Of a stretch of DNA of 64,000 nt, positions 11,927 through 51,298 are shown piece after piece. Position 1 is the stretch's first letter. Each line of letters opens with the position of its first letter. The notes below the pieces were generated by a model, which saw nothing but the letters and a program-made list of their open reading frames with translations, was not told the origin of the DNA and did no database searches. The stretch spans positions 22,630,001 to 22,694,000 of the forward strand of contig CM120646.1 in the NCBI GenBank assembly GCA_051362555.1, given 5' to 3'. Both the position numbers and the translations under genes were made by a program. This stretch comes from Lingula anatina. Taxonomy: Eukaryota; Animalia; Brachiopoda.

Positions 11927-12343
11927 GTAAGTCACCATTCACCAAAGTTTAAATCCACTCTTCCTGCTTCTTTTTGGAGCTAGTCTGAAGTTAAGCAGTC
12001 TTTACTTTTCATTCTTCTGTGAAAGGATTTCATTTTCAGTGCTTTACATGTCTTTAAGTTTGACAGAAGCCATTTCATAATCTCTTTGACATATGATATG
12101 AACAATTGCATGCATGCAGACAAACACACATCTCTTACAATTTTGGTTGTTTATTTATTTAAAAAAAGGCATCAGATTCTGTAACATGGCTTTTCATTTA
12201 ACTTAAACCACAATGTCTACAAGTTCATGAATGAAAAAGAAAATTAAGTAATATCATTAACACAGACCTTCTGTGCTTTTCACATAAATAAAGGACAGCA
12301 TCAAGGGGACCACACAATCGCAATAAATCTATATCATTTCCAG

Positions 12344-12481
12344 ATTATCAAGCACCAGTATCCTCTGCATCGTATCTCTTACTGCGCAGATGACAAGTCA
12401 GACAAGAGGATGTTCACCTTCATTGCCAAGGAGGCGGACTCACAGGATCACACTTGTCACGTGTTTGACAGCGAGAAATGT
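12344..12481 (+). CDS. GULP1: GULP1 exon (IIKHQYPLHRISYCADDKSDKRMFTFIAK...VFDSEKC)
   Basis: ttccag/gtacgt boundaries, 138 nt; PTB core. Confidence 0.94.
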
Positions 12482-12943
12482 GTACGTCTGTCCAATTTGT
12501 CATCCTGTATAACACTGTGGGGATTGTCTGATTTGGGTGAAATTGTGATACATATATTGTTTAAGTTGAATGAAGTTGTGGTTGAAATTGCGACATAGGT
12601 TGAGTCAATACTTACATGTTTCAGTAGCAAATGACTGCCAGGTCCTCACTTGCCCTGTCTTTCACAAATGGCAAATGCATTGAGTTGGGTGAGATTGCTA
12701 CAATGTCACACCTATCGCAATGAAAAACCATGCACTGGAACTTTCAGGTGTTACCTATTATGGACAGTTTTGATTGCATTGAACCAAGACTTCTCTTGTC
12801 CAGTGTTGGTGCAGCGTGCTTGTCATGTGGTCACAGCCAGAAGTGAAATTGTGTTGGGTTGTGACAATTGAGATCATACTAGCACACCTAACACAATTAG
12901 GGAACACTTGTTCACTATATGAATGTCATATTTTCCATTCCAG

Positions 12944-16728: not shown

Positions 16729-16806
16729 TGTCCCCACCCCCCAGCACTGGGAAGAGACCTCATCATGGCACACCCACCTCACCAGCCAGTACTTCTAATA
16801 ACCAAG
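16729..16806 (+). CDS. GULP1: GULP1 Pro-rich exon (SPPPSTGKRPHHGTPTSPASTSNNQ); its 3' end seeds the minisatellite
   Basis: ttgcag acceptor and AAG|gtacag donor; phase 1-1 links the neighbouring exons. Confidence 0.8.
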
Positions 16807-18907
16807 GTACAGTATATATACTCTATCACACACCCACCTCACCAGCCAGTACTTCTAATAACCAAGGTACAGTATATATACTCTATCACACACCCACCTC
16901 ACCAGCCAGTACTTCCGATAACCAAGGTACAGTATATATACTCTATCACACACCCACCTCACCAGCCAGTGCTTCCGATAACCAAGGTACAGTATATATA
17001 CTCTATCACACACCCACCTCACCAGCCAGTACTTCCAATAACCAAGGTACGGTATATATATACTCTATCACACACCCACCTCACCAGCCAGTACTTCTAA
17101 TAACCAAGGTACGGTATATATATACTCTATCACACACCCACCTCACCAGCCAGTACTTCTAATAACCAAGGTACAGTATATATACTCTATCACACACCCA
17201 CCTCACCAGCCAGTACTTCCAATAACCAAGGTACAGTATATATACTCTATCACACACCCACCTCACCAGCCAGTACTTCCAATAACCAAGGTACAGTATA
17301 TATACTCTATCACACACCCACCTCACCAGCCAGTACTTCCAATAACCAAGGTACAGTATATATACTCTATCACACACCCACCTCACCAGCCAGTACTTCC
17401 AATAACCAAGGTACAGTATATATACTCTATCACACACCCACCTCACCAGCCAGTACTTCCAATAACCAAGGTACAGTATATATACTCTATCACACACCCA
17501 CCTCACCAGCCAGTACTTCCAATAACCAAGGTACAGTATATATACTCTATCACACACCCACCTCACCAGCCAGTACTTCCAATAACCAAGGTACAGTATA
17601 TATACTCTATCACACACCCACCTCACCAGCCAGTACTTCCAATAACCAAGGTACAGTATATATACTCTATCACACACCCACCTCACCAGCCAGTACTTCC
17701 AATAACCAAGGTACAGTATATATACTCTATCACACACCCACCTCACCAGCCAGTACTTCCAATAACCAAGGTACAGTATATATACTCTATCACACACCCA
17801 CCTCACCAGCCAGTACTTCCAATAACCAAGGTACAGTATATATACTCTATCACACACCCACCTCACCAGCCAGTACTTCCAATAACCAAGGTACAGTATA
17901 TATACTCTATCACACACCCACCTCACCAGCCAGTACTTCCAATAACCAAGGTACAGTATATATACTCTATCACACACCCACCTCACCAGCCAGTACTTCC
18001 AATAACCAAGGTACAGTATATATACTCTATCACACACCCACCTCACCAGCCAGTACTTCCAATAACCAAGGTACAGTATATATACTCTATCACACACCCA
18101 CCTCACCAGCCAGTACTTCCAATAACCAAGGTACAGTATATATACTCTATCACACACCCACCTCACCAGCCAGTACTTCCAATAACCAAGGTACAGTATA
18201 TATACTCTATCACACACCCACCTCACCAGCCAGTACTTCCAATAACCAAGGTACAGTATATATACTCTATCACACACCCACCTCACCAGCCAGTACTTCC
18301 AATAACCAAGGTACAGTATATATACTCTATCACACACCCACCTCACCAGCCAGTACTTCCAATAACCAAGGTACAGTATATATACTCTATCACACACCCA
18401 CCTCGCCAGCCAGTACTTCCAATAACCAAGGTACAGTATATATACTCTATCACCCACCTCGCCAGCCAGTACTTCCAATAACCAAGGTACAGTATATATA
18501 CTCTATCACACACCCACCTCGCCAGCCAGTACTTCCAATAACCAAGGTACAGTATATATACTCTATCACACACCCACCTCGCCAGCCAGTACTTCAAATA
18601 ACCAAGGTACAGTATATATACTCTATCACACACCCACCTCGCCAGCCAGTACTTCAAATAACCAAGGTACAGTATATATACTCTATCACACACCCACCTC
18701 GCCAGCCAGTACTTCCAATAACCAAGGTACAGTATATATACTCTATCACACACCCACCTCGCCAGCCAGTACTTCCAATAACCAAGGTACAGTATATATA
18801 CTCTATCACACACCCACCTCACCAGCCAGTACTTCCAATAACCAAGGTACAGTATATATACTCTATCACCCACCTCACCAGCCAGTACTTCTAATAACCA
18901 AGGTACA
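16769..18907 (+). repeat. 60-bp minisatellite, about 36 copies, made from the GULP1 exon 3' end plus 5' splice site plus intron start
   Basis: Unit cacccacctcaccagccagtacttccaataaccaag|gtacagtatatatactctatcaca is directly visible. Two units are 62 bp and two are 56 bp. Confidence 0.99.
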
Positions 18908-19215
18908 ATATATGTATTGTTAACAGTCAACAGTCAGTTAACTTGTACTTTTAGTTGTTCCATTTGGCCTTGCATGGGCTTGTATACAGTTCTATATACC
19001 AGTTTTTAAATATTATCTTTCAACTTTTTCTCTTGAATAATTTTTTTTATTATTAAAGGCTTTTTAGTAATTGAAACCAAATTGGAGATAAATTTGGCCA
19101 AACACAATCAAGTATTCTACTTTGTCTGTAGCCAAGTTAGAATGTATTTGACATTGTTGAGAAGGTGTGAGTCCAGCCTCTAGATCTAACATTTTATCTC
19201 AAACATATATTTCAG

Positions 19216-24846: not shown

Positions 24847-25246
24847 CTATACAAGGACCACTCTTTCGTAGGGGACGGGAGTCATTTTGTAAAACAATAA
24901 GTATGGCGTCTCGCAGATACTGACTTGTTTATTCAACAAGCTCTGCATGTCTTCTTCGCTTTTAAGACAAATCCTTTCATCATCACACTCAAACCAATTC
25001 CCAGAATAGTCTGGGATGTCTACTTCATTCTGGGTGTAGATATTACAGGAGTTTGCTTTCCCTGCAGTTTCTTCTCCTTTCCGTTTAATTCTCTCAGAAA
25101 TAGGGCGTTGTCGCTCTGCAGATTTGGCGTCTGTCTTTTTGGAGGGGTCCTTCATCTTGTGAACAGGGGGGGCTTTGACGTAGGCAGTGTAGTGACCCGA
25201 GGAGATGGAAATACCGCTGTGCATGACAACTGCATACAACTCAAAT
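24847..25246 (-). CDS. USP1: USP1 last exon (His box; WFECDD; ETPYLLFY)
   Basis: Catalytic His and Asp motifs; ctccag acceptor; TAG stop. Confidence 0.94.
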
Positions 25247-25643
25247 CTGGAGTGAAGTGAAAATGAATCGAATGAAATACATTCATTGTAACTCTTATCT
25301 CAAATCATTCTGTCAAATTACCAACACCCAAAAACTCTTTTTTGCAGCTATATTTATATTTCTTTTTGACCTTCCATTCCTGGACAAACTGATTTTAATT
25401 GCAATTCTCTTGAACAAATAATGCCTAATATATTTTCTCTCTTCATTTTGAGGAGTAAAATATCTGAACCTGAAAATTTTTAAAGATCTTTATATCATTA
25501 GAATATACCTTTATTGAAAACAATCTTACAAACGACACAAGTTAACAATGGTAGGAAAATACTAGCTTGTGTTCAAAAACTTAATTACTGTCTGATCTAA
25601 CTACTAAGCTAATAAGGGACATTTTCTCCTAGAATATACTCAC

Positions 25644-25748
25644 TCATGACTGTGTTTACGACAAGGCTGTTTGCACCTGTTACTGAAGCAGGGTAAAACC
25701 AGAGGCGTGGCCACGAAATCATTCACCTTGGAGATACCGCCAAATAAC
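25644..25748 (-). CDS. USP1: USP1 exon (LFGGISKVNDFVATPLVLPCF...)
   Basis: ttgcag/gtgagt boundaries, phase 2-2. Confidence 0.9.
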
Positions 25749-26126
25749 CTGCAACCAGACAGACACATATAAATAACTATCATTAACCTGTGTATAAAAT
25801 GTATCCTTGTCAAAGTTTACCTTCAAGTTACCTGCAATAAAGGAAAGATGCATATATCATAATTATTGAACTAAAGTATATATAATATGTATCCTTGGCC
25901 TTCTTGTGATATTGAAATTGAAATGCATTTATATTATATTGATGCGTATTGTGAAAAACAAAACTGTCTAACTGTCATTTAACATTACTTCATTTTCCTG
26001 ATGAAGTCTATGGGATATAGAGGAAATGTCAGAACTCACTCCATCTACCATTCTTTGCTTGACTGAATCAACAAATAGACCAATAAAAATATACACCTTA
26101 TTTTTTCATTAATACTTAATTCTTAC

Positions 26127-26316
26127 CCTGAGTTCGCCTCAAATCTCTTGAGATGAAGCATCAGTATCTGTGGCAGCCTGACATACTGGGTGGACCTCTC
26201 AGCTTCCACGTATCTGTGGCACTGATCGCAGAAATATTTATTATCATCCTGCAGACGTTCTATCTCTGAGAAAGCCTCCATCAACCAACTTACACTGCCA
26301 GGATTACAGGACTCGT
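26127..26316 (-). CDS. USP1: USP1 exon (...ERLQDDNKYFCDQCHRYVEAERS...LPQILMLHLKRFE)
   Basis: Second CxxC and LHLKRF motif; ttttag/gtaaga boundaries. Confidence 0.94.
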
Positions 26317-26591
26317 CTAAAATAAGGAATGGGATGGAGAAAAGTGAACATTTTTAAGGAACTCCACTCAGTGGTAAATTAAACACTGGTCTAAAAGTAC
26401 TGTCACTTGACACTGTGTAATTTCCCACTAACTAGTATCAATGGAAATTTTGTAAATTTTCCATTTTTACATGAATAACATAAGCACTGACTTACAAATG
26501 TTTTCTTTCAAAATTACATACTCCCCCAAGTAAGACGACAAAAGTTTGCATTTGGAAAACAGCAACTAAAAAAAAAAAGTGAAGCTCTCAC

Positions 26592-26730
26592 CATCTGTCT
26601 CATCATCAGTGTCCCCCTCTTCTTTCTTGACTTTCTCTTTCTTCACTGGGACCCCAATGTCCTGAAAGTCCTCCTTCCTCTGCGTGAACCCCTCACACTC
26701 CAAACACCGCGTCCTCAGGGCCATGCTGCC
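26592..26730 (-). CDS. USP1: USP1 exon (GSMALRTRCLECEGFTQRKEDFQDIGVPV...)
   Basis: First CxxC of the fingers subdomain; ttccag/gtgaga boundaries. Confidence 0.93.
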
Positions 26731-27003
26731 CTGGAACATGAATGCACAACATTGCTATCACATGACCTAATGCTGAATCATTTCAATAACATGTAAGTAT
26801 ATCTTCTGAATAGAGGCTATTCATGTGGATAGCCTCATTACCCAATGAAAATGTTCTCATATTCTCATGGAATGGCTTTCAAATTTATTGCCAACTGAAA
26901 CAACTCAATCAAATTTTTTCTTTCAACTATTATCATTATCTGTGAGATAAAACGGACACCGAGCTCATCCCTGAAGTACACTTCTATCCATAAAATCTCT
27001 CAC

Positions 27004-28361
27004 CTGAAACAAATCCTGAACCAAACAGTCCAGCTCGTTAGTCTTTCTTCTGTGAGATTTCGGCGACTTGGCCGGGGACGCCATGTACGTGTCTGGCTGG
27101 TGGGCGTCCATCTTGTCTTCTGGATCCGTGTCATCTTTATTCCCGACTCGGTCGCCATTCACAACTTTGACAATTTCAAGATCCACGTCCTTGCGCCTGC
27201 CGCTCTCAGATGGTAATTCCGAAGTTTGGTTTGATTTATCACCATGTTTGGATGAGAGAGACAAATTGCCAGACTGATATTTGGAACTGATACTGACGCC
27301 CATTTTTTCAAAAGACTGTTTAATAGTCATATTGGATTTCATTTTTTGAGCATCTTTAGTCTCTACACCTTTTTGGTCAACTTCAGAAATGTTGGACAAA
27401 TGATTACTGTCATTCCCTGACTTCCCATTAAGAGCACCAAAGAGATCTATTTTAATCTTGTTAACACTGTCTTGTTTTGTCCCAGTACCACTTTCACACA
27501 CAGTGCTCAGGTTTTTGTTTTCTTTCTTTGGGGAGCAGTAATTATCTATAGCATGTCTGTTAAGTTTAACCTGAGGGCTGCCTGGACTGAGTTTGGCATC
27601 TTGTACATGAGATTTTGCATACTGAGAGATCATCTCACTATCCCTGTCTGAGCAATTCCAACTCGACGATGTCTCTCCTGCCTTCTGTTGAGTATTTTTC
27701 TTCGGAGATTCCAAAAACGGACTCCGCTCAATCTTAACATAGGCCCCTGAGAGAAGCTTATTGTCTTTAGCCTTTTGTTTGGGGTAATTTTTAATCCCGG
27801 CTTGACAGGTGTTTTTAGAGCTCAGTGGGTCTGGTGTAGCAGTAAGTCTAACAAAGGCCGCGCTGTTCAATTTCCTGTCCTCCACAATGTCAATGTTTTC
27901 TTGGAAATGGTGAGACCTGCCATTTTGTTTGGTTGGAGTCAGGGGGCTGTTGTTAGGCTCTCCGCCTCCTGCAAGCGGACTGGGTTCCCTCTTAATGACT
28001 GCTCCCCGCATCCCCAACCTCTTTTTGGCAAACATGGCAGTAATGCTTGGCTGTTTAGAATCCGAGTTTGGCTTCAAAGGTTTTGGCATGGGTTCCTCAA
28101 AACCAAGTCCATTTTCTCCACTGAAACTTTTCGACAGAACTTCCTGAGATACAGATTTAGAGTGCTTCTTTTTCTTAGACTGTCCTTTCAAAGGCACATT
28201 CTTCTCAACGTCATGGTCAAGACAAGAATCACTTTTGCCCTTCCTGGGTCGTCCTCTTTTCCTCCCCACTATTGCCCCAGTCCCATCTTTTTTCAGGACA
28301 GGTCTCTGACTGCCTGGACCCATGCTGCCATCATTTCCATTGACGTTTGCATCACCATTTC
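27004..28361 (-). CDS. USP1: USP1 large 1358-nt exon (insert; ends ...LVQDLFQ)
   Basis: Lies within the 490-aa ORF; ctgcag/gtgaga boundaries; splices in frame into GSMALRTRC. Confidence 0.9.
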
Positions 28362-29148
28362 CTGCAGAAAAGACAATAACTATGAATTTCAGAACCATTC
28401 CACAGATCTGCTCAACAAAGAAACATTTGAAAACCATTCATCTTATTCACTATTGTTCAATATTGAACAAGCCAAGGGCAGCTTCTGGTCATAAAATAAC
28501 CTGAAAGTATTGTTACTTTCCATGGTATTTGACAGGATCAAGTCCAAAACTTGATTTTTGTCCTCAAATACATACCTGGTTACAAGAGTATGTAAAAAAA
28601 TTCACCACTCATATACATATATATATCTAATTATGTGAAGTGAAGAAGTATTAACTTAATGTGCTGTTTTTGTTTTTTCTTTAAAAAATTGGAGACATTT
28701 ATCCAGAATCTGTTACACCACCTTTTTTTAAGAGAATAATCCACCACAGTAATTGAGTGATTTACAGTAATTACTCATTACATTAAGAAAGCATAAACCA
28801 ATAATTTTAGTAATCTTTTAAAATGTTGATTCAAAAGTTTGGAAAAAGTTGAAATTGTGAGTAAGCTATCAGAACAATGCAAGGTGTTAGAAAATCTTAA
28901 ATCATCAACTTCTTATGAGCAACAACAGACACCGCTTTGTGCGTTAAGCAAAAGGAAGAAAGAAATGTATTGGTGGGGAGTGGGGCTCATGAGAGGGGTC
29001 TGGGGGTTGCTGACGTCAAAATAATAATAATAATAATAAAGTAATAATAATAAAATAAAAAAATTAAAATTAACAAAAAAGCGATGTCAAACTTCCAATT
29101 AAAATCAGAAAAATATCACGCCTGAACAGTTCAACAGAGGTCCCCCAC

Positions 29149-29481
29149 CTTTCTCCTGCTTCGTATCATGTCCATTCCAGACCTGACTGGGACGAACCCC
29201 AGTGATCTCTTCCACTGCATCCTCCAGACACAGTCTCTTCCTACTCCTGGGTGAGGGTGACATCTTGGTGTCCACACCTGTCACCTTAGTGCCATCCTCC
29301 TCCTCTGTCTGTTTCACTGGGGTCACTTCATTGTTGACAGAGGTGAACTTGGAGGTGAGGTTTTTACCACCACTGACGTGTTCTATGATGTCCTCTGCAG
29401 TGTAGATCTTTATACTGGGAGATGAGTGTTTGGGCGTGTGGGGGACTTTTAACTCTTCTACTTTCCTAACTGGGCTAGATT
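29149..29481 (-). CDS. USP1: USP1 exon, low-complexity insert
   Basis: Open 333 nt, ttcag acceptor, AAG|gtgggg donor, phase 1-1. The donor position is less certain. Confidence 0.75.
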
Positions 29482-29782
29482 CTGAATTGATAAAAACACC
29501 AGATTAATTTTCTATTATCTAAGTTTTTGTCAGCATTATGTAATTAATCTTACAAAACACCTGTAAAAACAGATTTAACCAAGCTGCAATATTGTAAATA
29601 CAAGATGACACTCCTAACTGAAAGAAGACTTGGTATCACAGCATCCAAGTCAATCAGGTTGATTTCTACAAAGACCAACAAACAAGGCAGCAAAGCTGTC
29701 AAACAGACATGCATATAAATTACAAAACTAAGAGTAAAAATCTATGCTAGGTAAACTGTGTGATACATCGACAATCCATTAC

Positions 29783-30066
29783 CTTGAGTACCATTAGCAG
29801 GTTTCTGATCTGACCTTGAACCAGCAAGGTCATGACCTTTTGACCCTAATTCATCTACTGATATTAGATTCTTCTTCACAGAATTTTTCTGGAAAAACTT
29901 CATTAAAGTTGGCTGCTTGGAATCAGGCACTGGCTCAATACTTGGCACGGCCTTGACCTTGTACTTGTTGACCTCTGCAGTGGCGTCCTCTATATAGGCC
30001 AGCATGCACCTGAGAACTTCATGTGCATCATGTTGGAGGTTGCCCTCAAACATGGGATTCAGGTCT
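29783..30066 (-). CDS. USP1: USP1 exon (DLNPMFEGNLQHDAHEVLRCML...; contains PIP box)
   Basis: QHDA box; gtcag/gtaatg boundaries. Confidence 0.92.
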
Positions 30067-30364
30067 CTGACCAAGAATAAAACAACACAATAATAATCAA
30101 TAAAATAAGAATATGTATATAGATATATATATTAGACATAATATTAGATATAAATATTTTAGACTTCATTTTTGTTACGTCTTCTCATTAAAATGTATCT
30201 AAGCAAATCAAAATTATTACAGAAAATTATCTTTAGATCTGAAGTACCTTTGTGTCAATTTTTCATGGTGACAAATTTGAAAGAAAAAAGAAAGAAATTG
30301 CATACACACCTGCCACCCACAACATGCAAACACACGCACACACATTTTATCTAATAATTTTATC

Positions 30365-30696
30365 AAATTGCCTTTTAGTATCAGAGCTGAAAGTGACTAT
30401 AATACTTTTAAAGCCTGTCTTAAAACTCATCTTTTTAAAGAATTTTATGGTTAGTGTTCCTTTAAACCTTTTAGTTGTTTATCATTTATTAAGAGTGAGC
30501 TTGGGTTAATTTTAGTAGTATTTTAAAGTTATATCAATAAATTTTCTCTGCTTTCTATAATTAATTAATTTTATCAGTAGATGTTAAAGTATTTTAGTAT
30601 TGTTATTTTTAGACTTTTTAATTATTTGTAAAGTGCATTGAAATGTAAAAAATGGAATGCGCTATATAAGAAATAAATATTATTATTATTATTATT
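30365..30696 (+). mobile_element. 5'-truncated L2/CR1-group LINE 3' end in a USP1 intron
   Basis: Translates KLPFSIRAESDYNTFKACLKTHLFKEFYG* (30365-30454), the typical ORF2 C-terminus LPxxIR...FKxxLKTHLF. It is followed by the tail tgtaaagtgc...gcgctatataagaaataaa(tat)n. Confidence 0.8.
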
Positions 30697-30727
30697 AAAC
30701 ACATAAACAATATCCTAGCTGTCTTAC

Positions 30728-30822
30728 CTGACAATATCCAGCAATCTCTCAGGTCTTGTAAACAGGAGCTCAGTACCTGGGTTCACACATTTCTCTTCTA
30801 GACGGTCCATTCTGTTAAACAG
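30728..30822 (-). CDS. USP1: USP1 exon (LFNRMDRLEEK...RPERLLDIV)
   Basis: ttccag/gtaaga boundaries, phase 0-2. Confidence 0.88.
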
Positions 30823-31130
30823 CTGGAAGGGCACAGTGATATATCATATATCATATATGTATACTTCACAATTTTTGAATGGCACATTCTACGTAATGAT
30901 CTACAATTTAATCCTATGTATACATGTATGTATATTCTATTTATGATGCAAAATGTTGTGTGATGAAAGTATGTCATACCACTTTATTTACTAACAGGTA
31001 TTTCCAAATTATTCTAACATCTGAGAATATAAAAGGAACATTTGTATAATATATAATAAGCAAATGAAATGTAATTGGGTAATTTACACAAGATAAACAC
31101 AATCATGCACTAATGATATGTGAAATATAC

Positions 31131-31187
31131 CTTGTGTAGAGTTCTCACCAGCTTCCATGGCAAGAGATCACCAGATGAACTGTCTCC
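31131..31187 (-). CDS. USP1: USP1 exon (GDSSSGDLLPWKLVRTLHK)
   Basis: tttcag/gtatat boundaries, 57 nt, phase 0-0. Confidence 0.8.
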
Positions 31188-31430
31188 CTGAAACATGAAA
31201 AAGGAAGTGACCTGAAGAGAATAAGAGAACCCCCTTCCCCCAACTATACAATGCCTGTATCTCTGTCTACAAAAAAACTTGTATTTCCTGTCTCAGCAGA
31301 TACTACTGATAACAGATAAACACACACACACATTTCAAATGCAGAAATGCCTAAATTCCCAATTGACAAAAATTAACAAATTATACTATACATAATCAGG
31401 CATACATATAAAGTGCACCCCCCCCCCCCC

Positions 31431-31477
<47 letters not shown>

Positions 31478-31528
31478 AAATGAAAATCCCATACTGGATT
31501 CAAGTAGCACCAGTACATAGGACCATAC

Positions 31529-31662
31529 CTCTCCAGTTTTAGCCTCGGCTGCCAGTTTTCTCTCTATAACACTCAGTTCCTTGTACAGAATAGACAACTG
31601 CTGGGAGAATCCTGGTGTGTACCTCAACACTTGAAGCACACTGTTCAGGAAACAAGTATTAC
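31529..31662 (-). CDS. USP1: USP1 exon with catalytic Cys (GNTCFLNSVLQVLRYTPGF...)
   Basis: USP Cys box; cttag/gtatgg boundaries. Confidence 0.94.
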
Positions 31663-31966
31663 CTAAGAAGGACACCAAACTTCAAGAATCAGACTTAGAG
31701 TTTAAGATTTATGTTTGTATTAATTAGTGAACTGATGGTGAAGGAAAATATGCCCATGTATCTACCTTTATTATCATTATTTTTATTATTATTTTATTTT
31801 TTAGTGTTATCATTATTATTATTATTTAAACACAAAGGATTCCAACATTACTCAAAATGAGAGACCCCACTGCTTATGTTGTAATACAACAAACAAAGTA
31901 AAATTAGGTGAAAACAAATTGCTTAAACATTGACAACCTCTTCAAAATATATTGGCATATGCCATT

Positions 31967-33755: not shown

Positions 33756-34092
33756 CTTTTAAGTCTTTGAAAGAACGAAATCATTGGACACTGTCAATTC
33801 ATGACTTCAGAAAAAGTTGCCGCCATCTCCCTTTCATGTGACGTAGAGCTCAAGAAGCAGTACTATTTAATTTCGATCTTATCTGATTGAAAAAATTCAT
33901 ATTATTTTTAATAAAAAACTAATTGAATTCTACAAAATATCTTATTTTATTTTTATTGATATTTTTATATGCAATTTATATCATTACATATATGATGTAC
34001 ATTTTTAGTATTAATCGAAAATATAGATGAGTGGTTCCTGAAGGTCAATTGAAGGCCGTCCATGGCGTGAAACTTGAAAAAAAGTTGTCATT
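33756..34092. promoter_or_regulatory. Probable bidirectional promoter and non-coding first exons of USP1 (-) and ORC4 (+)
   Basis: Outward-facing donors (minus AAAG|gtaaca with intron starting at 33755; plus |gtaagt at 34093) flank an AT-rich core. There is a YY1-like GATGGCGGC on the minus strand near 33820-33828 and GGCGTGAAA-CTTGAA at 34064-34078. Confidence 0.6.
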
Positions 34093-34208
34093 GTAAGTTT
34101 CCGATTAAATGAAGTGAAATTGAGCGGCTTTACATTAACAAGTCAAGAAAATGTGAATTTTTGTGTTCACTCAATGTGCTTCTTATTTCAGTCAATAATT
34201 GAAACAAG

Positions 34209-36947: not shown

Positions 36948-37056
36948 ACTGTCCCAGTTTGCCGTCTGAGCAGCTCTCACCCGAACCTGGAGGCCAGTGA
37001 TTTCATCGACTCCTGTCGTTTACTCACACAAGATTCCAAGTCTAATATTCTTCATG
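36948..37056 (+). CDS. ORC4: ORC4 exon (TVPVCRLSSSHPNLEASDF...DSKSNILH)
   Basis: ttccag/gtaagc boundaries; conserved SHP and DSKxNIxHG. Confidence 0.92.
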
Positions 37057-37418
37057 GTAAGCTATAATTATTATTATTTTGATTTTTGCAAACAGTATAT
37101 TGGATATGAAATATCACTTTTGTTCCTTGTTATTTGTTGAGCATGTGCTAAACAGGTAAGCAAATCGAAGTTTCTCCTATTGTCAATTCGCTATGTCAGT
37201 AGCATCTCTTCATTTATTGCAATTTTGATTTCTGAAGGCTTTAACAAATGTTAACACAATTTTCTTCCACAAGTTAAAAATTGTGTGCAGTGAAATTAAT
37301 TCACTTTGAAGAAGTTAACTTAGCATTGCTGTCATAAAGAATAATTATGTATTTGAAATACATGGAGCCATAAGACTACACATACAGCAGTAGCAATTTG
37401 AATAGTTTTAAAACCATA

Positions 37419-37424
37419 TTTATT
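37419..37424 (-). terminator. Polyadenylation signal of nested gene
   Basis: AATAAA about 75 nt after the stop codon. Confidence 0.55.
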
Positions 37425-37498
37425 GCTACATAATGAAACAGTACATTGATATGTCTTTAGCTATGTTGATGGTAGGTCATCATCCTAGTTTAAAGAAT

Positions 37499-37655
37499 TC
37501 ACTTTGATCGGCAGCAGCAGTAGTTCGGCCCACAGTATCGACCTCCACATGAGTCGTAACGATGGGTCTTCAGCCCCAGGGTGTCGGTGTCCATGCTGGG
37601 GTTTGGAGACAGGCGCTGGGCACTGTACACGTGAAGGGCATTAAAACACTCCAGT
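37499..37655 (-). CDS. Nested gene exon 4 (LECFNALHVY...YDSCGGRYCGPNYCCCRSK*)
   Basis: ttgcag acceptor, TGA stop. Confidence 0.87.
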
Positions 37656-37942
37656 CTGCAACAGATATTTATTTCTTTAATTGTGGATATGATTCTAGAA
37701 TAATATTTGTGTATAACCTGTGTAACTTTCACGTAAAAAACCTTTGGGACATATGGTTATCATTTACAATATTGTTCAAGCAAATTATCTTTTACATTTA
37801 GAATTTTTTTTTAAATGGAATGTGTCTCAGTAATTTAAAGGAAGAAATATTCTCCTTCAAAATATATATGCATATTATATATATCAGACTCGTATATATT
37901 TGATGAAGTTAAACTGAAATTAAATCCTGAGACTGTTCCTAC

Positions 37943-38129
37943 CCATTAGCCTTCACTTGGTTATCCTGATTAGAAAGTGCTCTGTTGGCACACACAGCTG
38001 AGCAGGGAGGAGCCTTATCACTGCAGACCCTGCGGACAGCGTACACCCAGCCACCCCTGGCATTGAGGGCTGCGCATGACGCTTGAGCAAGGATGTCTCG
38101 GTAGTAGTAGAAATAGGGAATGTCAGCAG
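37943..38129 (-). CDS. Nested gene exon 3 (ADIPYFYYYRDILAQASCAAL...WVYAVRRVC...)
   Basis: ttttccaag/gtagga boundaries, phase 1-2, GC-rich. Confidence 0.87.
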
Positions 38130-38255
38130 CTTGGAAAAGAACCCAGAAATATTTGTTTTTGGTCAGAGAACCCAAGTTAGGAATATATCTGAAAGATGAT
38201 CTTAAATTTGGGCTCGACTCAGTTGAGTAATGCATATGAAGTTGAAATCACTTAC

Positions 38256-38424
38256 TAATATCAGTGAGGTTTTTGACTTCCTGTTTCATTGTGGAGAACT
38301 CGGAGAGATAAGCCTCCATTGCTGTCTTCATCAGCTGGAGTTCCTGCCCTAACTGAGTTAACTGACCAGAGAAGGTGGACTTCTCCTGGGTCAGGTGGTA
38401 GTTAGCATCTTGGCAGGCCTCCAC
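38256..38424 (-). CDS. Nested gene exon 2 (coiled coil VEACQDANYHL...MKQEVKNLTDI)
   Basis: tcttag/gtaagt boundaries, open 169 nt, heptad pattern. Confidence 0.85.
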
Positions 38425-38864
38425 CTAAGAATCATGTACATGTTTATTAATATGAATGCATTTTAAAGTCTTTGTCTCTCACACAATCATGGGCATTTTG
38501 CCTAATTGACCAAATAGTTTACTTTGTCTAATAAAGACATTGTCATTTAAGCATATTTTTTAAGAATTTTATTATTTGCCTAAAGGAAAGACACTAAATG
38601 TAAGTAACATTACGGGGCTGTATGTCCAGGAATATTAGTGTATTATTGATTTATCCTAGTTTTCATTCTATAATTTGTCAGTATTTATAGAAAAAGTACA
38701 ATTTGAATTATTACATTGAAGGACTTTGAAATTAATTTTTATTATTTCTGGATATGCCCCTAGATGAGTATTAACCCCTGAGCAGCAGTCAACTAAAATA
38801 TCTTCACCCTGGTTTTGACTGTTATTGTTAAAATTGGTTATTGATACAATTCATGCATACTTAC

Positions 38865-39011
38865 ATCTTTCTTTAGCTGGTCCAGTTCTTCCTCCAGCTG
38901 TGCAGTTTTTGGTGTCTCTGTTGGCTTCCCATCACCAGTGTTGTTACACACCGGGTTGCCCACACTAACTTTGATCAGGAGCAAAAAGATTCCCAGGACC
39001 AACAGCTTCAT
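38865..39011 (-). CDS. Nested gene exon 1 (signal peptide MKLLVLGIFLLLIKVSVG...LEEELDQLKKD)
   Basis: ATG at 39011, hydrophobic leader, gtaagt donor. Confidence 0.85.
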
Positions 39012-39066
39012 AGTTCTCTTATGATGAGGATGTCCTTAATGCCAGCTTGTTTGCTGAAGTTTTGCC

Positions 39067-39072
39067 TTTATA
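39067..39072 (-). promoter_or_regulatory. TATA box of nested gene
   Basis: cTATAAAgg, 55 nt upstream of the ATG. Confidence 0.65.
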
Positions 39073-39961
39073 GGATGTTATGACTTGGATCTAGAAGGAT
39101 TCCCTCTCTGTTGTTGAGTGATGTCCATGTTTGATATCATGTTTATTTGCCTGTGATAAGATTTTCCGTCTGGATTAGGAGTTAGTGATTACTATAAAAT
39201 TGGTCAGTGAAACTTAATTGTAAGAGTATTAATGCAGTCTTTGCATCAAGTTCAAGATTGTCTGACTTAGAATATATTGGGATAAAGAAGGCTCAGGAAG
39301 TCCAACATTTGTCCCCCCGCTCCCCAGCATGCTCCTTGCCTCCACCCCAATAGGAAAATGCTGAGTGTGGATAATGCAAGGTCAGGGCTGTCTTCTTTTA
39401 TCAAAGTAGTGTCACATGGTATAATTGACCACTCGTCATATATCTTGGGTTGACTCTGTTTGAGTACTAGTCGTACCATCCCCATCACCCAGCAGGCCCT
39501 GTTTTATATGATATACACACATACAGCCAATCCCAGGTGTTGAATATGATGATATCCAGTACCAGTAATGAAGATAACTCGTTCGTCTTGATCCCTTTCT
39601 ATATTTGCGTAGTTTATACAAACTTTCAGCTTGGCAATGTTTCTGGTTACTTTTCCCACACTGATATGTGTTACTTGTACCAGGAAACAGTTTATAGTTA
39701 ATGTACTTTATCATTGGATGTTTATGTCCAATTTTCTTTCATCCTTTCAGTTCTTTGTTACTCAATATTTTAGTAGGTATAAGAGCATGATTAGTAGTTG
39801 TTTGCTATTATTATTGATTTTTTTTTTTTTTTTTGAAAACTTTCCACTAGTTTTTACTCTTTTTAGCCTATGTCCTTGTTGCCACTATTTTTTTTTTTTA
39901 GATCACAAAGAAAAGACTTAGATTTCATTTAGATAATGCACTGTTCTTGTCTCTTTTTTAG

Positions 39962-40308
39962 GCATATCCATTCTTGAACTATGTCTCATAATAGCCATGA
40001 AACACCTGATGGAAATCTACGACGGTGAACCTTTCAACTTTGAAATGCTCTACAACGAATACAGAAAATATGCAGAGAGGCGCTCGTCCATGCAGATGTT
40101 CGACAGACAGGTCGTCATGAAGGCCTTTGAGCACTTGGTGGCTTTAGAACTTGTCCGCCCCCTGGATGGGGTAGGAAGTAAGACGCAGAAGGAGTACAGG
40201 CTCATGTCTCTTCTGGTGGAGCCCGCGCAGTTGTCAGAGGCTCTACAGAGATACCCTGGATGTCCCACTGAAATAAAGCAGTGGGCACAAACAGCAGTGT
40301 TAGGTTGA
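39962..40308 (+). CDS. ORC4: ORC4 last exon (ISILELCLIIAMKHL...GEPFNFEM...YPGCPTEIKQWA)
   Basis: ttttag acceptor, TGA stop; conserved ORC4 C-terminus. Confidence 0.95.
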
Positions 40309-46209: not shown

Positions 46210-49130
46210 GAGGGGGGGGGGCAAAAAATGTTTTGATTTGGACTCCAGTGTTTTAATGTTATTTAAAGGACTGTGCAATGCAGTTTTAAATTCCCTGTGG
46301 AAGCTTTTTATTTTAAATATTTGATCAATTCAGAAGTTGGTTAAACCCAGGAACTGCCAAGATTCACCTTTTTTCCTCACTGTTCTGATTGAAAGCAGAC
46401 TGCCAAAGTGCTAGATGAGATTATGAGAGATTACTGCTACATTGATTGCCACTCTAAAGTAGCATTTGGTATGAGGAATTTTAGATGTTTGAAAAGTTGT
46501 AGCAAGAGATACAATGTTCCCATATATATGTATTTTTCTGAAAACTGTACAAAATATTAAAAGGTTACGTTGATTTGGATGGTAATTTAAGAATTATGTG
46601 AATGGAATTTGTTTAAAAAATATTTTTAAGCCTTTATCCTGTGTACCATTTGCATCCTAAAGATTTCTACAAATTTGAAGTTTCCCCCTTTTCAGCACTC
46701 CTTATATATGGCATTGGTGTTTTATGAATTTGTTATGTACATGTTAAACTTTTTTTTTAATATAACATTTTTTGGATAATATAAGAAAGACTTAGAGATA
46801 TTTATTTGCAGTACCTTCAGTTTACTTTCTAAAATGTTTGAATAAAGGCCTTTCTTACAATATTTCTTTCACACAGTTAATTTAATTAAAATTTAAGAGA
46901 AATGTTGATAAACTAAAAGCATTGAAGAAGAGAGGATAACAAGGTTTCTGAAACGCAGAAAAGACCCTACACAATAATGTGAATGCTTCCATCTAGCGTG
47001 TTGCCATATCTCTAATAGATGGCAATAAAAACATTTTAAAGCTGCTTTTGCATTTAAACATAATGTAGTATTCTTCAAGTGGCATCTCCAGCTTTCCTTT
47101 CCATGGCAGCCTAAGAATCAAGCCATGTTAAATATGCCATTAGCTTATCTCACTATTAGGTTAAGATTGATTTTTGGACTGGAATTGGGCAAATATGTCT
47201 AATTCAACATGTTGGATGTCTTTTTTGTTGTTATGTTGAGGCAAAGGCAATCATCATCTTGAAGGGATGTACAGCTATAATTTTGTTTACACCAAGTGAC
47301 TAATTTGTGGACCATATCCATGATTGAATTGCTAAATACTGAAATATTTTATATTGGCTTCTGAAAGTAAGTTATCTACATAGCATTTTGAGCCTGGTTA
47401 ATTAAAATATTGGGAATGGATGAAAAAGCAGTTACAATGGGCTGAGTTACTAGTATTTAGATTGTTCCTTGAGATACAAAAAATAGTTACATAAGTATGA
47501 AAACTTATCTTGAACTGGCATATTTATATAACAAAAAATTCCCTGCAGAAATGCTGAAATGCTTCTGGAAGAGAAATAGATGTATATGGTTATCATGTTC
47601 ACCAAAAATATGGGAATTTAAAATGTCTGTTATGACACAATTCATTTATATTTTATATTTCTAAGAAAGCAGATGTTTAGGCTGAGGCATTAAATGCTAC
47701 AAAATCAATTTACCCAGGGTAGTTTTGCTTACAGGTTTATGGTTGTATTTTCAAAGAGGTAGCAGTTTTAGAAACAAGTTGGGATAATATTTGTAAAAAA
47801 AAAAATTGATTTTTTTGTTTCAAACTTCACTTACATGTGTGCTATCACAAGTTTGTTATCCTAACAAATATTTAACTCATTGTTTGCCTTTGTAAGAATG
47901 CAAATCTTGTTGAATTACCAACTGCCGGCGTTCTCACCATTTCAGTGTTTTTGAAGACAGCAACATGTGTATCGATTGGCTGAGCTCAGGAGGATTTCCA
48001 CTTGGCTGGACAGTTAGGCCTTCCTGAGCCTTTTCCTGGCCAGATCTCTAGGAAAGTGATGTCCAGTAGACTGTGAAATGTTATGTTGTGTGTGTATTTA
48101 GATGATAGAGTCTCAACAGATGTATGGCAGCACATCCTTCTTCACCAAATACACTTGAAATGGGAGAGCGCTGCGACATCTTCCTGTTGCTTTAGAATCA
48201 ATATTTGTTATTTGCATGCGTCTTTTCCTTCACTTTCTCTCTCTCTCTCTCTCTCTTGCACACACACACAAACACACACACACTTTTGTCTTTATAAATA
48301 AGTGTAACTATCTAAATGAACTTGACCTACAATATTTGAGGGTTGGCCTTGGTGGCTGAAAGAGGAATCTTCCACATTTTGGCTTGTTCCAAATTACTCC
48401 AACCACAGCTAATGATCCCTTAATGTATACTTTTTCCAACTAGTTTGGTTAAAACATCAGAGTTAAACCAGGCTGCTTTGAGATATTGATCTATTTCAAA
48501 GAAACACTCAGACTATGGTGGAAACATTGATTACAGAGAAGAGGAAGCCTTTATTAGTAACTGATGTGTCTTTTGTTATCTTTGTTTGATTTCTAAGTAC
48601 TACAAGTTCACTTCATATTATTTATATTTCTTTTTACTGAAGCATACAGGGTTATGATGTATCATTAACATTTATACACATACAAATATTTTAATAAAGA
48701 TAATGGAAGCAGTATTTCCTTGATAAATGGCTAAATCTCTAAATGGGGCTAATCTGTTGACAATTGAGGAGTTGAATTTAAGAAATGATAAAATGTAAAT
48801 AGTCACAGTTTACCTATTTACATCAAAATGATGCATTTGTGGTTATGTGAATCTGAAAAAAAAAGTGTCGTACTGATTAAATCTGTTTTTGAAAATAAGG
48901 GCTTGTGTCTGAAGTCTTTAAAATATAAGGTTATGATATCTCTCATTTGAGAATTGAAACCCACTTTTGATTGGACCTGCGTAAAAAAGTACAAAAATCA
49001 ATAATGTATCACCTTTATATCCTCGCCCCTTTTTGCAGCCCTCTACATTCTAATTCTGTTATTGAGTACTCTTTTCTTTTTCTTTTGCAGTAGCAGTAAT
49101 AGCAGTAGTTCTGTCATGATGACGTCCACT

Positions 49131-51298
49131 TTTTATGTACAGACACAGATGTGTCTGTACATATTGCCATCACCTGCGTCTGTCGTCGCCGTCGCCGTCG
49201 CCGATGCCGATGCCGGCGCCGTGCACTTTCCTTGTAAACACAATAAGTGGAGGGCAGTTTTACTTTTTGGCTTAATATTTACAAAGCTGATGAATATTCA
49301 TAAAACGCAGGTCAAGTTCGAAAACCAGCATGATCAGGCCATTATTGTAGAAGTTATGCTGTTTTTTCACTTTTCAGCATATATGCAACCCTGTAAACAC
49401 ATTTTAAGGAAAACCGTTAGGCCTGTTGTCATGAAACTCACAGGAGTAATCAATCTTACTAAAACGCAGGTCAAGATCGAAAATCGGCATGATGGGGCCA
49501 CTATTTTAGTTGTTATGCTGTTTTTTCATTTTTCAGCATATATGCAACACTGTAAACACAATATAAGAAAAACAGATAGGCCAATTGTCATTGAACTCAC
49601 AGGAGTGGTCAATCTTACTAAAACACAGGTTGAGTTCGAAAATCAGCATAATCGGGCCATTATTTTAGAAGTTATGCTGTTTTTTCAAATTTCCTCAGAT
49701 TCAACTCTTAGGCATGTTAACAGTCTCATTATTGAACTAATAAGATACGTAAAAGTGTTTGTTTGACATTTCCTGCATCTTTACAACATTATTAGTTGAT
49801 TATGTAAAAATGATGGTAAACTTTTTAGCGTGTATTGTGTAATAAAGTTTCAAAAATGGAAATAAACTCATATCATTGCAGTTTGTCAGATTCAATCATT
49901 CACTATGTTCAGAATCTCAGAATGGAGGAAATTGGACATTTAACACTGTTGTATTGATATTTTTCCCATCTCATCAATTTTCTTAGTTGATCGTATAAAA
50001 ATGGCAGTAACCTGTTAATTTTGTTTTATGTTAAAAAAAGTGTTAAAAATGGAAAAAAAAACATTTCAGAACAGTGCTGTCTTGTTTACATTTTGGCATT
50101 TTCAAGTTGTGACTTGGAAGTTCCATGGGCCTGAAGACCTTTGCTAGTCACATTTTCTGAATATCCATGATACTAATATTTTATTATTAAAAATTGATGG
50201 TCATTATGCTGTTAAACATTATGTAATATTGCATCAAAATTTGAAAAAAACCTATTTTGGGCACTGCTCCCATGATGACCATTTAAGAAAAACCATGTCA
50301 CTTACTGTTCTCAAACAGTACAGTAAATATGTACAGATGTGTCTGTACATATTGCCATCACCTGCGTCTGTCGTCGCCGTTGTCGCCGGTGCCGATGCCG
50401 TGCACTTTCATTGTAAACATGATAAGTGGAAGGCAGTTTTACTTTTTGGCTGTATATTTACAGAGCTGATGAATATTCGTAAAACGCAGGTCAAGTTAAA
50501 AAATCAGCATGATCGGGCCATTATTGTAGAAGTTGTGCTGTTTTTTCACTTTTCAGCATATATGCAACACTGTAAACACATTTTAAGGAAAACCGATAGG
50601 CCTGTTGTCATGAAAATCACAGGAGTAATTGATCTTACTATAACACAGGTCAAGTTCGAAAATCGGCATGTTCCACGGGCTTGAAGACCCATGCTAGTAA
50701 CATTTTCTGAAAATCCATGATATGTGTATTTGATTATTAAAAATTAACGGTCATTTTGCTGTTAACCATTATGTAATATTGCATCAGAATAGAAGAAAAC
50801 ACAATTTTGGGTGCTGCTGCTAAGATGACCATTATGGGAAAACCATGTTACTTATGATTGTCAAACTTTCAAAAAAGAAATACAGGACTAAAATGCAGAG
50901 TAATTGATCTTACTAAAACGCAGGTCAAGTTCAAAAATCGGCATGATCGGGCCACTATTTTAGTAGTTATGCTTTTTTTTTCACTTTTCAGCATATATGC
51001 AACACTGTAAACACAATATAAGAAAAACAGGTAGGCCAATTGTCATTAAACTCACAGGAGTGGTCATTCCTGCTAAATCGCAGGTTGAGTTCAAAAATCA
51101 GCATAATCGGGCCATTATTTTAAAGAAATGCCGTTTTTATGTACAGACACAGATGTATTTTACCTGTTGAGCATAATTAAAATTTGATGTTGAATTTGCA
51201 GTTTAACATAATGTACTTTTGCATCAGAATTGACAGTAGCCTTTTTTTGTTATTTCCTGCTTTTTGTCTGTACATTTGACAGCTTTGCTGCCTTGTTT
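49131..51298 (+). mobile_element. Composite Helentron-associated (HINE/DINE-1/Pearl-like) element with 159-bp internal tandem repeats
   Basis: 5' T-run and inverted repeat tatgtacagaca/tgtctgtacata, then a (GCCGTC)n microsatellite and 159-bp units starting at 49301, 49460 and 49619. The 3' end has subTIR tgtctgtacat, a short hairpin gacagctttgctgcc and cttgttt. Confidence 0.8.

Follow-up and report, generated by a model that had tools for sequence, protein, structure and literature searches.

A gene nested antisense in the last intron of Lingula anatina ORC4 encodes a likely secreted, predicted homotrimeric protein with myticusin-type heads

Introduction

Collectins, ficolins and C1q-domain proteins are built on a common plan, in which a signal peptide, an N-terminal cysteine and a trimer-type stalk precede a C-terminal globular head. 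We analysed a 64,000-nucleotide stretch of the genome of the brachiopod Lingula anatina (assembly GCA_051362555.1, contig CM120646.1, positions 22,630,001 to 22,694,000 of the forward strand), hereafter called the window, and looked at a small gene that lies on the minus strand inside the last intron of ORC4. An original prediction, made from the letters of the window, had described it as a complete gene for an unrecognised secreted protein. We give slightly better than an even chance to the proposal that this intact antisense gene encodes a likely secreted, predicted homotrimeric defence protein with microbe-binding heads of the myticusin type.

Myticusin-1 is a protein of 104 aa with ten cysteines from the haemolymph of Mytilus coruscus (PMC5484132, PMC5856950), with minimal inhibitory concentrations below 5 µM for Gram-positive and above 10 µM for Gram-negative strains (PMC5856950). 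Other reviews treat the myticusins as mussel peptides, and the table of a 2023 review enters them with "no homologs among known AMPs", that is, antimicrobial peptides (PMC10608444). Mussel myticusin transcripts rise about 6-fold after injury and not after infection (PMC6401078); they also rise under acidification with shell damage (PMC10639161). Among bacteria, the mosaic adhesive trimer (MAT) fibres of Bdellovibrio are trimeric and carry varied C-terminal adhesive tips (PMC10769870). As for the position of the gene, C. elegans has 567 gene pairs nested in opposite orientation, and fly and human have several hundred each (PMC12274878).

Results

A complete four-exon gene lies antisense in the ORC4 intron

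Four exons on the minus strand of the last ORC4 intron (Table 1) join into a stop-free frame of 660 nt coding for 219 aa, and the three introns between them are all of the GT..AG type with matching phases, which reproduces the coordinates and phases first proposed. As far as can be judged from the sequence, the structure of the gene is confirmed as real and intact, with four exons. The GC content of the exons (0.48–0.56) stands above that of the non-exonic parts of the host intron (0.26–0.36). A TATA promoter and a polyadenylation signal had also been claimed, and both hexamers are present at their positions; they nevertheless occur at the level of chance (TATA-like hexamers 2.5 and AATAAA 1.25 per kb per strand in the window) and carry little weight alone, because such hexamers are frequent in the AT-rich DNA of this region.

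The features first noticed in the protein were found again: two cysteines in the N-terminal half, Cys22 and Cys53, ten more in the last 96 residues (124 to 216), and sequons at positions 23 (NNT) and 101 (NLT). The proposed signal peptide keeps the status of a prediction, made from hydropathy (11-residue mean of 3.49). The coiled coil of about 70 aa was borne out over residues 35–106, where L, I, V, M or F occupies 15 of the 21 a and d positions and 3 of the 51 others, and where the 3.5-residue periodicity exceeds that of all 5000 shuffles. The heptad register is continuous across the border of exons 1 and 2, and the stalk amounts to 9–10 heptads. Net charge is −8 for the stalk and +6 for the head; the dibasic sites are KK47 and RR138, with none at the stalk-head border.

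A single protein is matched by exon 3 (98% identity), the RefSeq Lingula anatina entry XP_013408811.1 (P0001 below), named "uncharacterized". P0001 is 139 aa long; its first residue corresponds to Met81 of the window protein (in exon 2), and 4 of the 139 positions differ between the two (97% identical). The joins of exons 2/3 and 3/4 are common to both, and exon 1 falls outside the RefSeq model; the window supplies a predicted signal peptide and 80 residues that are absent from this public model.

RNA reads were taken from 8 of 9 Lingula runs (all except X6), each sampled to 6–30%, with junctions listed from 3 reads upwards. On the minus strand of the stranded run X1, the bin of exon 2 holds about 267 bases and that of exon 1 holds 35, with none in the bin that separates them; their sum, 302 bases, is that of one 2×151 pair and, judging from the depth bins, fits one fragment spliced at junction 1. 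Stranded run X5 holds about 526 minus-strand bases at 39361–39895, upstream of the candidate TATA box, and because of these reads a second start is possible: transcription of the nested gene may begin elsewhere as well as at the TATA box at 39072, a restriction that applies to the promoter as originally claimed. A possible splice acceptor lies near 39091; with the X5 reads it could belong to an upstream exon, a longer 5' untranslated region or a separate antisense RNA. Exon 1 is also covered in X7–X9, libraries that are seemingly unstranded, so that these reads cannot be assigned to a strand. In X9, three reads pass unspliced from exon 4 into intron 3 (37662–37690) with two differences and leave the sequence at 37690; they may stem from a divergent allele, a paralogue or a structural variant.

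The head belongs to a large family that myticusin-1 appears to join

With a profile of three sequences, 377 clusters made at 50% identity passed E≤0.001 and 246 passed 1e-10, of which the best 150 were retrieved, and a profile of 110 sequences matched 150 proteins, of which 120 were listed. Named members come from sponges, cnidarians, an annelid, bivalves, Lingula, amphioxus, two choanoflagellates, Goniomonas, Keelungia and bacteria. Among the matches listed, many of which are nameless, there is no vertebrate, arthropod, nematode or echinoderm name. The family reaches beyond invertebrates, with protists and bacteria carrying the head. Members are called "uncharacterized" or similar, apart from the automatic labels "collectin-12-like" (amphioxus) and "Skp family chaperone".

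That the head has no named domain model, as first stated, held throughout. Pfam matched the head in 0 of 148 relatives and gave nothing on it with the exons of the nested gene, P0001 had no Pfam hit at E≤10, and any Pfam family that turned up at E≤1 among 98 head members did so in 2 of them at most. With NCBIfam and PHROGs, run on 110 members, matches fell on the stalks or weakly on one member, and sequence searches of the PDB gave no significant match to the head; the ESM Atlas returned two unnamed clusters at 0.83–0.86, which we take as a lead only, and no structural row above a template modelling score (TM) of 0.35.

In the family alignment 17 columns are invariant or nearly so, and the conserved positions comprise nine Cys along with Ala, Ala, Arg, His, Tyr, Gly, Gly, Pro and Asn. 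Median Cys spacing over 192 heads is 16,6,3,18,29,4,4,0,0. The family motif is found in 152 of the 246 fetched proteins and in 0 of 49,200 shuffles. Strongly cationic heads are not the rule, the median net charge being +2.

In 240 of 246 proteins the head lies at the C-terminus. A heptad segment precedes it in 22 of the 71 longer proteins (1–3 in shuffles), and collagen does so in sponge, amphioxus and unnamed records. Many relatives consist of a signal peptide and the head, with a basic site just before the head in 32 of 179. Ten chains have three tandem heads and seven have two. The three-head chains P0004–P0011, P0013 and P0014, one of them from Goniomonas, have long linkers and are possible single-chain pseudo-trimers. 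By eye, amphioxus P0209, P0211, P0218 and P0220 show in order a membrane anchor, a coiled coil, a basic cleavage site, collagen and the head, an arrangement reminiscent of ectodysplasin or of scavenger receptors. On the bacterial side, L001:2-2029, L006:2774-4261 and P0047 are fibre-like proteins with the head at their end, P0047 having C1q and H-lectin domains as well, and L011 and L012 join the head to an N-terminal region of the DUF3011 type.

A tree of 67 heads (the named records and 10 loci, over 107 columns) leaves many forks open; it divides the heads of bacteria, Goniomonas and Keelungia from those of animals and choanoflagellates (96/91) and contains lineage-specific expansions in Owenia, Branchiostoma, Lingula and Dysidea. 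Of 20 pattern matches in a collection of bacterial genomes, 12 were confirmed as heads. The head is rare in bacteria and its spread there is patchy, because among 201 genomes of the phylum of the seed genome the seed alone matched. Viral contigs gave 9 pattern matches, none of which was confirmed, and six other family locus ids returned nothing in open-access full text.

When open-access full text was searched with the terminal motif, the matches were reviews that print myticusin-1 (PMC5484132, PMC5856950) and nothing else. Myticusin-1 was compared by eye on the printed sequence, no program being run on it. It has 16 of the 17 most conserved family residues, the Gly of the LGLK strand being the one missing. 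Its Cys spacing (16,5,3,21,30,4,4,0,0) lies inside the 5–95% range of the family and compares with 16,6,3,18,32,4,4,0,0 in the Lingula head; both heads end in C-x4-CCC. Read in this way, myticusin-1 fits the family motif and appears to belong to the same family as the Lingula head; no protein named myticusin is found among the family matches listed. An undescribed family had been suggested. The lack of a Pfam model stands, but on the strength of this comparison the head itself is already described through myticusin-1, which has also been assayed, and the gene is partly in RefSeq (XP_013408811.1). We have not met the wide reach of the family, its trimer or its unmatched fold in print: within open-access full text we found no paper on a wider myticusin family, a myticusin trimer or a myticusin structure.

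Models predict a mixed alpha/beta head and a trimer

Modelled from 98 sequences, the head (predicted local distance difference test, pLDDT, 90.5; predicted template modelling score, pTM, 0.81) is a predicted mixed alpha/beta domain of about 107 aa, composed of a long first helix, a strand, a short pair of helices and three further strands. An earlier model from 3 sequences (pLDDT 63; best Z 4.0) was set aside. The model at pLDDT 90.5 gave nothing at E≤0.001 with Foldseek in PDB or BFVD, and a best Z of 3.1 with VIA-align over 48,161 chains (root-mean-square deviation, rmsd, 4.1; 65 aligned; none at Z≥5). Such an absence shows that there is no match, not that the fold is new. Two weak leads are tied with noise, the C-terminal domain of MGAT5 (Z 2.9, rmsd 3.6, 63 aligned, 19% identity) and the lectin MVL (Z 3.0, rmsd 3.6, 46 aligned). 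The guess of a C-type-lectin-like fold gained no support from the Foldseek rows, which were weak (E 2.7–6.9, TM of about 0.2 and rmsd 11–19 Å), and in a second structural look C-type-lectin chains were not listed at Z≥2.

Three copies of P0001 modelled together scored 0.82 (runs 0.92, 0.74 and 0.82; best control 0.00), with at least 84% contact agreement among runs, a partner pLDDT of at least 81 and the best-placed contacts from head to head. The predicted contacts follow the heptads and run through the first helix of the head, and the first strand of one head joins the LGLK strand of the next. For calibration, 21 of 30 solved pairs and 0 of 23 single chains from microbes attained that mark; the eukaryotic figures are 17 of 29 pairs (1 of the 7 without an older relative) and 0 of 30 single chains. 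No similar solved complex was found, though a coiled coil of generic type may pass because the predictor has memorised the form. The choice of three chains rests more on architecture, because the head follows collagen, heptads and fibre-type stalks; collagen is an obligate trimer. Taking model and architecture together, the nested protein probably multimerises as a homotrimer, in keeping with the multimerising layout that the original prediction had seen.

The ORC4 host gene and the rest of the window

The identity of the host is given by the exons that flank the last intron, which match Pfam ORC4_C. This intron is crossed by 33 junction reads from 5 of the 8 runs, and ORC4 is normally spliced across it. 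The remaining coding introns, measured on RNA reads, are of 456, 450, 616 and 371 nt, and the early statement on intron lengths, with the other ORC4 introns under 0.7 kb, was confirmed. In the 5' untranslated region of ORC4, an intron uses two donors 9 nt apart (joints 34083 and 34092 to 34192).

The nested gene lies entirely inside the ORC4 intron and on the opposite strand, as in opposite-nested pairs. The C. elegans gene ceh-10 within polq-1 (PMC12274878) is likewise a coding gene on the opposite strand in an intron of a DNA-metabolism gene, and nothing so far distinguishes the pair described here from pairs of that kind. ORC4 is not mentioned as a host among the top-ranked open-access papers on nested genes. 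The original prediction had pointed out that the gene would be transcribed head-on into a housekeeping gene; such nesting is common in animals (PMC12274878), so antisense nesting in ORC4 is ordinary and adds little. Six more Lingula loci, recorded on other contigs, carry the head domain, and the ORC4 intron would most likely be just the place where this paralogue landed.

Table 1. Features of the nested gene and of its ORC4 host intron (positions in the window)
Feature	Position	Strand	Content or support
ORC4 penultimate exon	36948..37056	+	read joints
ORC4 last intron, host of the nested gene, 2905 nt	37057..39961	+	spliced reads
ORC4 last coding exon	39962..40308	+	Pfam ORC4_C, E 5e-30; read joints
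TATAAA, candidate core promoter	39067..39072	-	61 nt upstream of ATG; sequence
Coding exon 1 (aa 1-49)	38865..39011	-	predicted signal peptide (about aa 1-18), Cys22, NNT sequon, first heptads
Coding exon 2 (aa 50-105)	38256..38424	-	coiled-coil stalk, Cys53, NLT sequon
Coding exon 3 (aa 106-168)	37943..38129	-	end of stalk and first half of myticusin-like head
Coding exon 4 (aa 168-219 and stop)	37499..37655	-	second half of head; CGPNYCCC motif at end
AATAAA, candidate polyadenylation signal	37419..37424	-	75 nt past stop codon; sequence

Elsewhere in the window, exons of a ubiquitin-specific protease (24847–31681, minus strand; Pfam UCH pieces) stand head to head with ORC4, and we take this UCH-domain protease to be USP1-like; a few minus-strand reads at 33800–34033 hint at a bidirectional promoter shared with ORC4. 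An exon of a PTB/PID-domain gene lies at 12248–12598 on the plus strand (Pfam PID, E 4e-10). A tandem array at 16769–18913 (period of about 60 nt, 35.8 copies, 98% matches) holds long repetitive open frames on both strands, and at 49005–50684 two related open frames, the first without a Pfam match, sit on a 159-nt repeat that is probably a repeat element.

Discussion

A likely microbe-binding trimer and the readings that compete with it

We propose that the signal peptide seen in the hydropathy profile would lead the chain to export and glycosylation. Three stalks are predicted to form a parallel coiled coil, which the first helix of the head continues at the three-fold axis, and the adjoining, disulfide-rich heads would lock strand to strand. 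The conserved polar residues Gln121, Arg139, Asp161, Gln163, His176, Lys197 and Asn212 may form or line ligand sites, and the model places several of them where subunits touch. In this scheme the trimer would hold ligands of the bacterial cell wall by multivalent binding, in the manner of collectins and ficolins, whose heads are different, and Cys22 and Cys53 might tie chains or trimers together. Binding to microbial surfaces is put forward because myticusin-1 is antibacterial and because the head takes the slot of a head on collectin-like and adhesin-like stalks; since the heads of the family are not strongly cationic and myticusin-1 is neutral by count, specific binding is favoured over membrane lysis. 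By analogy, a function as a microbial binder is likely. Of the lectin-like, immune or matrix role suggested at the outset, recognition or immunity is the likely part.

Several observations weigh against this proposal. The original prediction had asked for the three junctions in stranded RNA: none was seen at 3 reads or more in the 8 runs at the sampling given above, one X1 pair fits junction 1, and expression as a whole comes to about one informative read pair. Myticusin-1, the sole family member to have been assayed, is distant, sharing by eye about a fifth of its residues with the Lingula head. A long stalk is missing from 80 of 151 relatives. At least one two-head chain (P0159) is apparently complete, and the three-head chains may be of one origin. 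The three-copy job lies outside a calibration made on two copies and, three copies being the only number modelled, does not rank 3 over 2 or 4. Finally, the MAT N-domain model NF053851 matches 3 of 30 scanned proteins at 29.6–35.7 bits, where the cut-off is 60.

The trimer could be real and yet serve host molecules, as a matrix, adhesion or cytokine-like ligand in wound repair or in the shell or cuticle matrix. The amphioxus chains with anchor, coil, cleavage site, collagen and head would, by eye, suit such a role, their layout being that of a shed ligand similar to ectodysplasin A, and both the modest charge of the heads and the response of mussel transcripts to injury and not to infection (PMC6401078) speak for it. 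We nevertheless consider it unlikely, given that the one assayed member is an antibacterial haemolymph protein, that recognition genes typically show lineage-specific expansions such as those seen here in Owenia, Branchiostoma, Lingula and Dysidea, and that the bacterial members tip fibres whose nearest named kin are adhesins. Less probable again is a precursor whose acidic stalk acts as a pro-region and whose basic head is released as a soluble protein that kills bacteria directly. The opposite charges of stalk and head, the bare head of mature myticusin-1 and the many relatives made of signal peptide and head, 32 of 179 with a basic site just ahead, would all agree with it; the two dibasic sites of the Lingula protein, however, are not at the stalk-head border, and in the model a regular heptad coil runs on into the core helix of the head.

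It is very improbable, in our view, that the gene is a silent or decaying copy, an intact-looking duplicate that sits in an intron and is seldom transcribed. A frame open over four exons, intact splice sites, all ten head cysteines and unbroken heptads argue otherwise, and in a second allele or copy the 4 substitutions over 139 residues leave the frame open. The scarcity of reads, set against an ORC4 exon depth of 10–20 in the best runs, and the six other Lingula loci with the domain are what such a copy would lead one to expect, but the runs were read to 6–30% only. The reading as a secreted, microbe-binding trimer remains the one that we prefer.

On a wider scale, and with somewhat less than an even chance in our estimation, the myticusin domain may be an unrecognised class of trimeric recognition head, of unsolved fold, beside the C1q/TNF, C-type lectin and fibrinogen heads. 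It would have been swapped among coiled-coil, collagen and bacterial fibre stalks and be shared by bacteria, protists and marine invertebrates while unseen in vertebrates and ecdysozoans; in that case the peptide known from mussels as an antimicrobial would act as a trimer without a stalk, specific for one ligand of the cell wall, and the brachiopod protein would be its collectin-like form. Such a class would have been missed because no member is seen in the usual model animals. The family link, with the predicted trimer and the unmatched fold, gives myticusin, listed in reviews without homologues or structure, a mode of multivalent binding that can be tested, and it offers a first clue to function for a large family that lacks annotation; marine invertebrates may possess a further collectin-like class of immune recognition protein.

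Comparison with known systems

The head of the nested protein is closest to myticusin-1/myticusin-alpha (Liao et al. 2013, as cited in PMC5484132, PMC5856950 and PMC10608444; precursor of myticusin-alpha AFJ04410.1), with which it shares by eye ten cysteines, near-identical spacing and domain length. It differs from the bare 104-aa myticusin-1 in being preceded by a stalk of about 90 residues and two extra cysteines, and in its charge, +6 where myticusin-1 is neutral by count. As regards the MAT fibres, the N-domain of MAT is matched weakly by three bacterial-type relatives that carry the head, and G-N-V-G-I-G fibre repeats occur in four; the solved MAT tips (S74, beta-sandwich, TNF-like, C-type lectin) are not among the structural matches listed for the head, and the Lingula protein is an animal, coiled-coil form.

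With collectins, ficolins and C1q-domain proteins the nested protein has in common the order of signal peptide, cysteine, stalk and head. A neck of the collectin type is predicted, both from the heptads and from the score of the three-copy model over its controls. The head itself is without a Pfam match to C-type lectin, fibrinogen or C1q; among the 148 relatives, too, there is no gC1q or fibrinogen match on the head, which separates the protein from the C1q-domain-containing (C1qDC) and fibrinogen-related proteins, and the Gly-X-Y collagen run of collectins is absent from it and present in some of its relatives. Although it stands outside the collectin, C1qDC and fibrinogen-related families, the nested protein likely works, by analogy, as they do.
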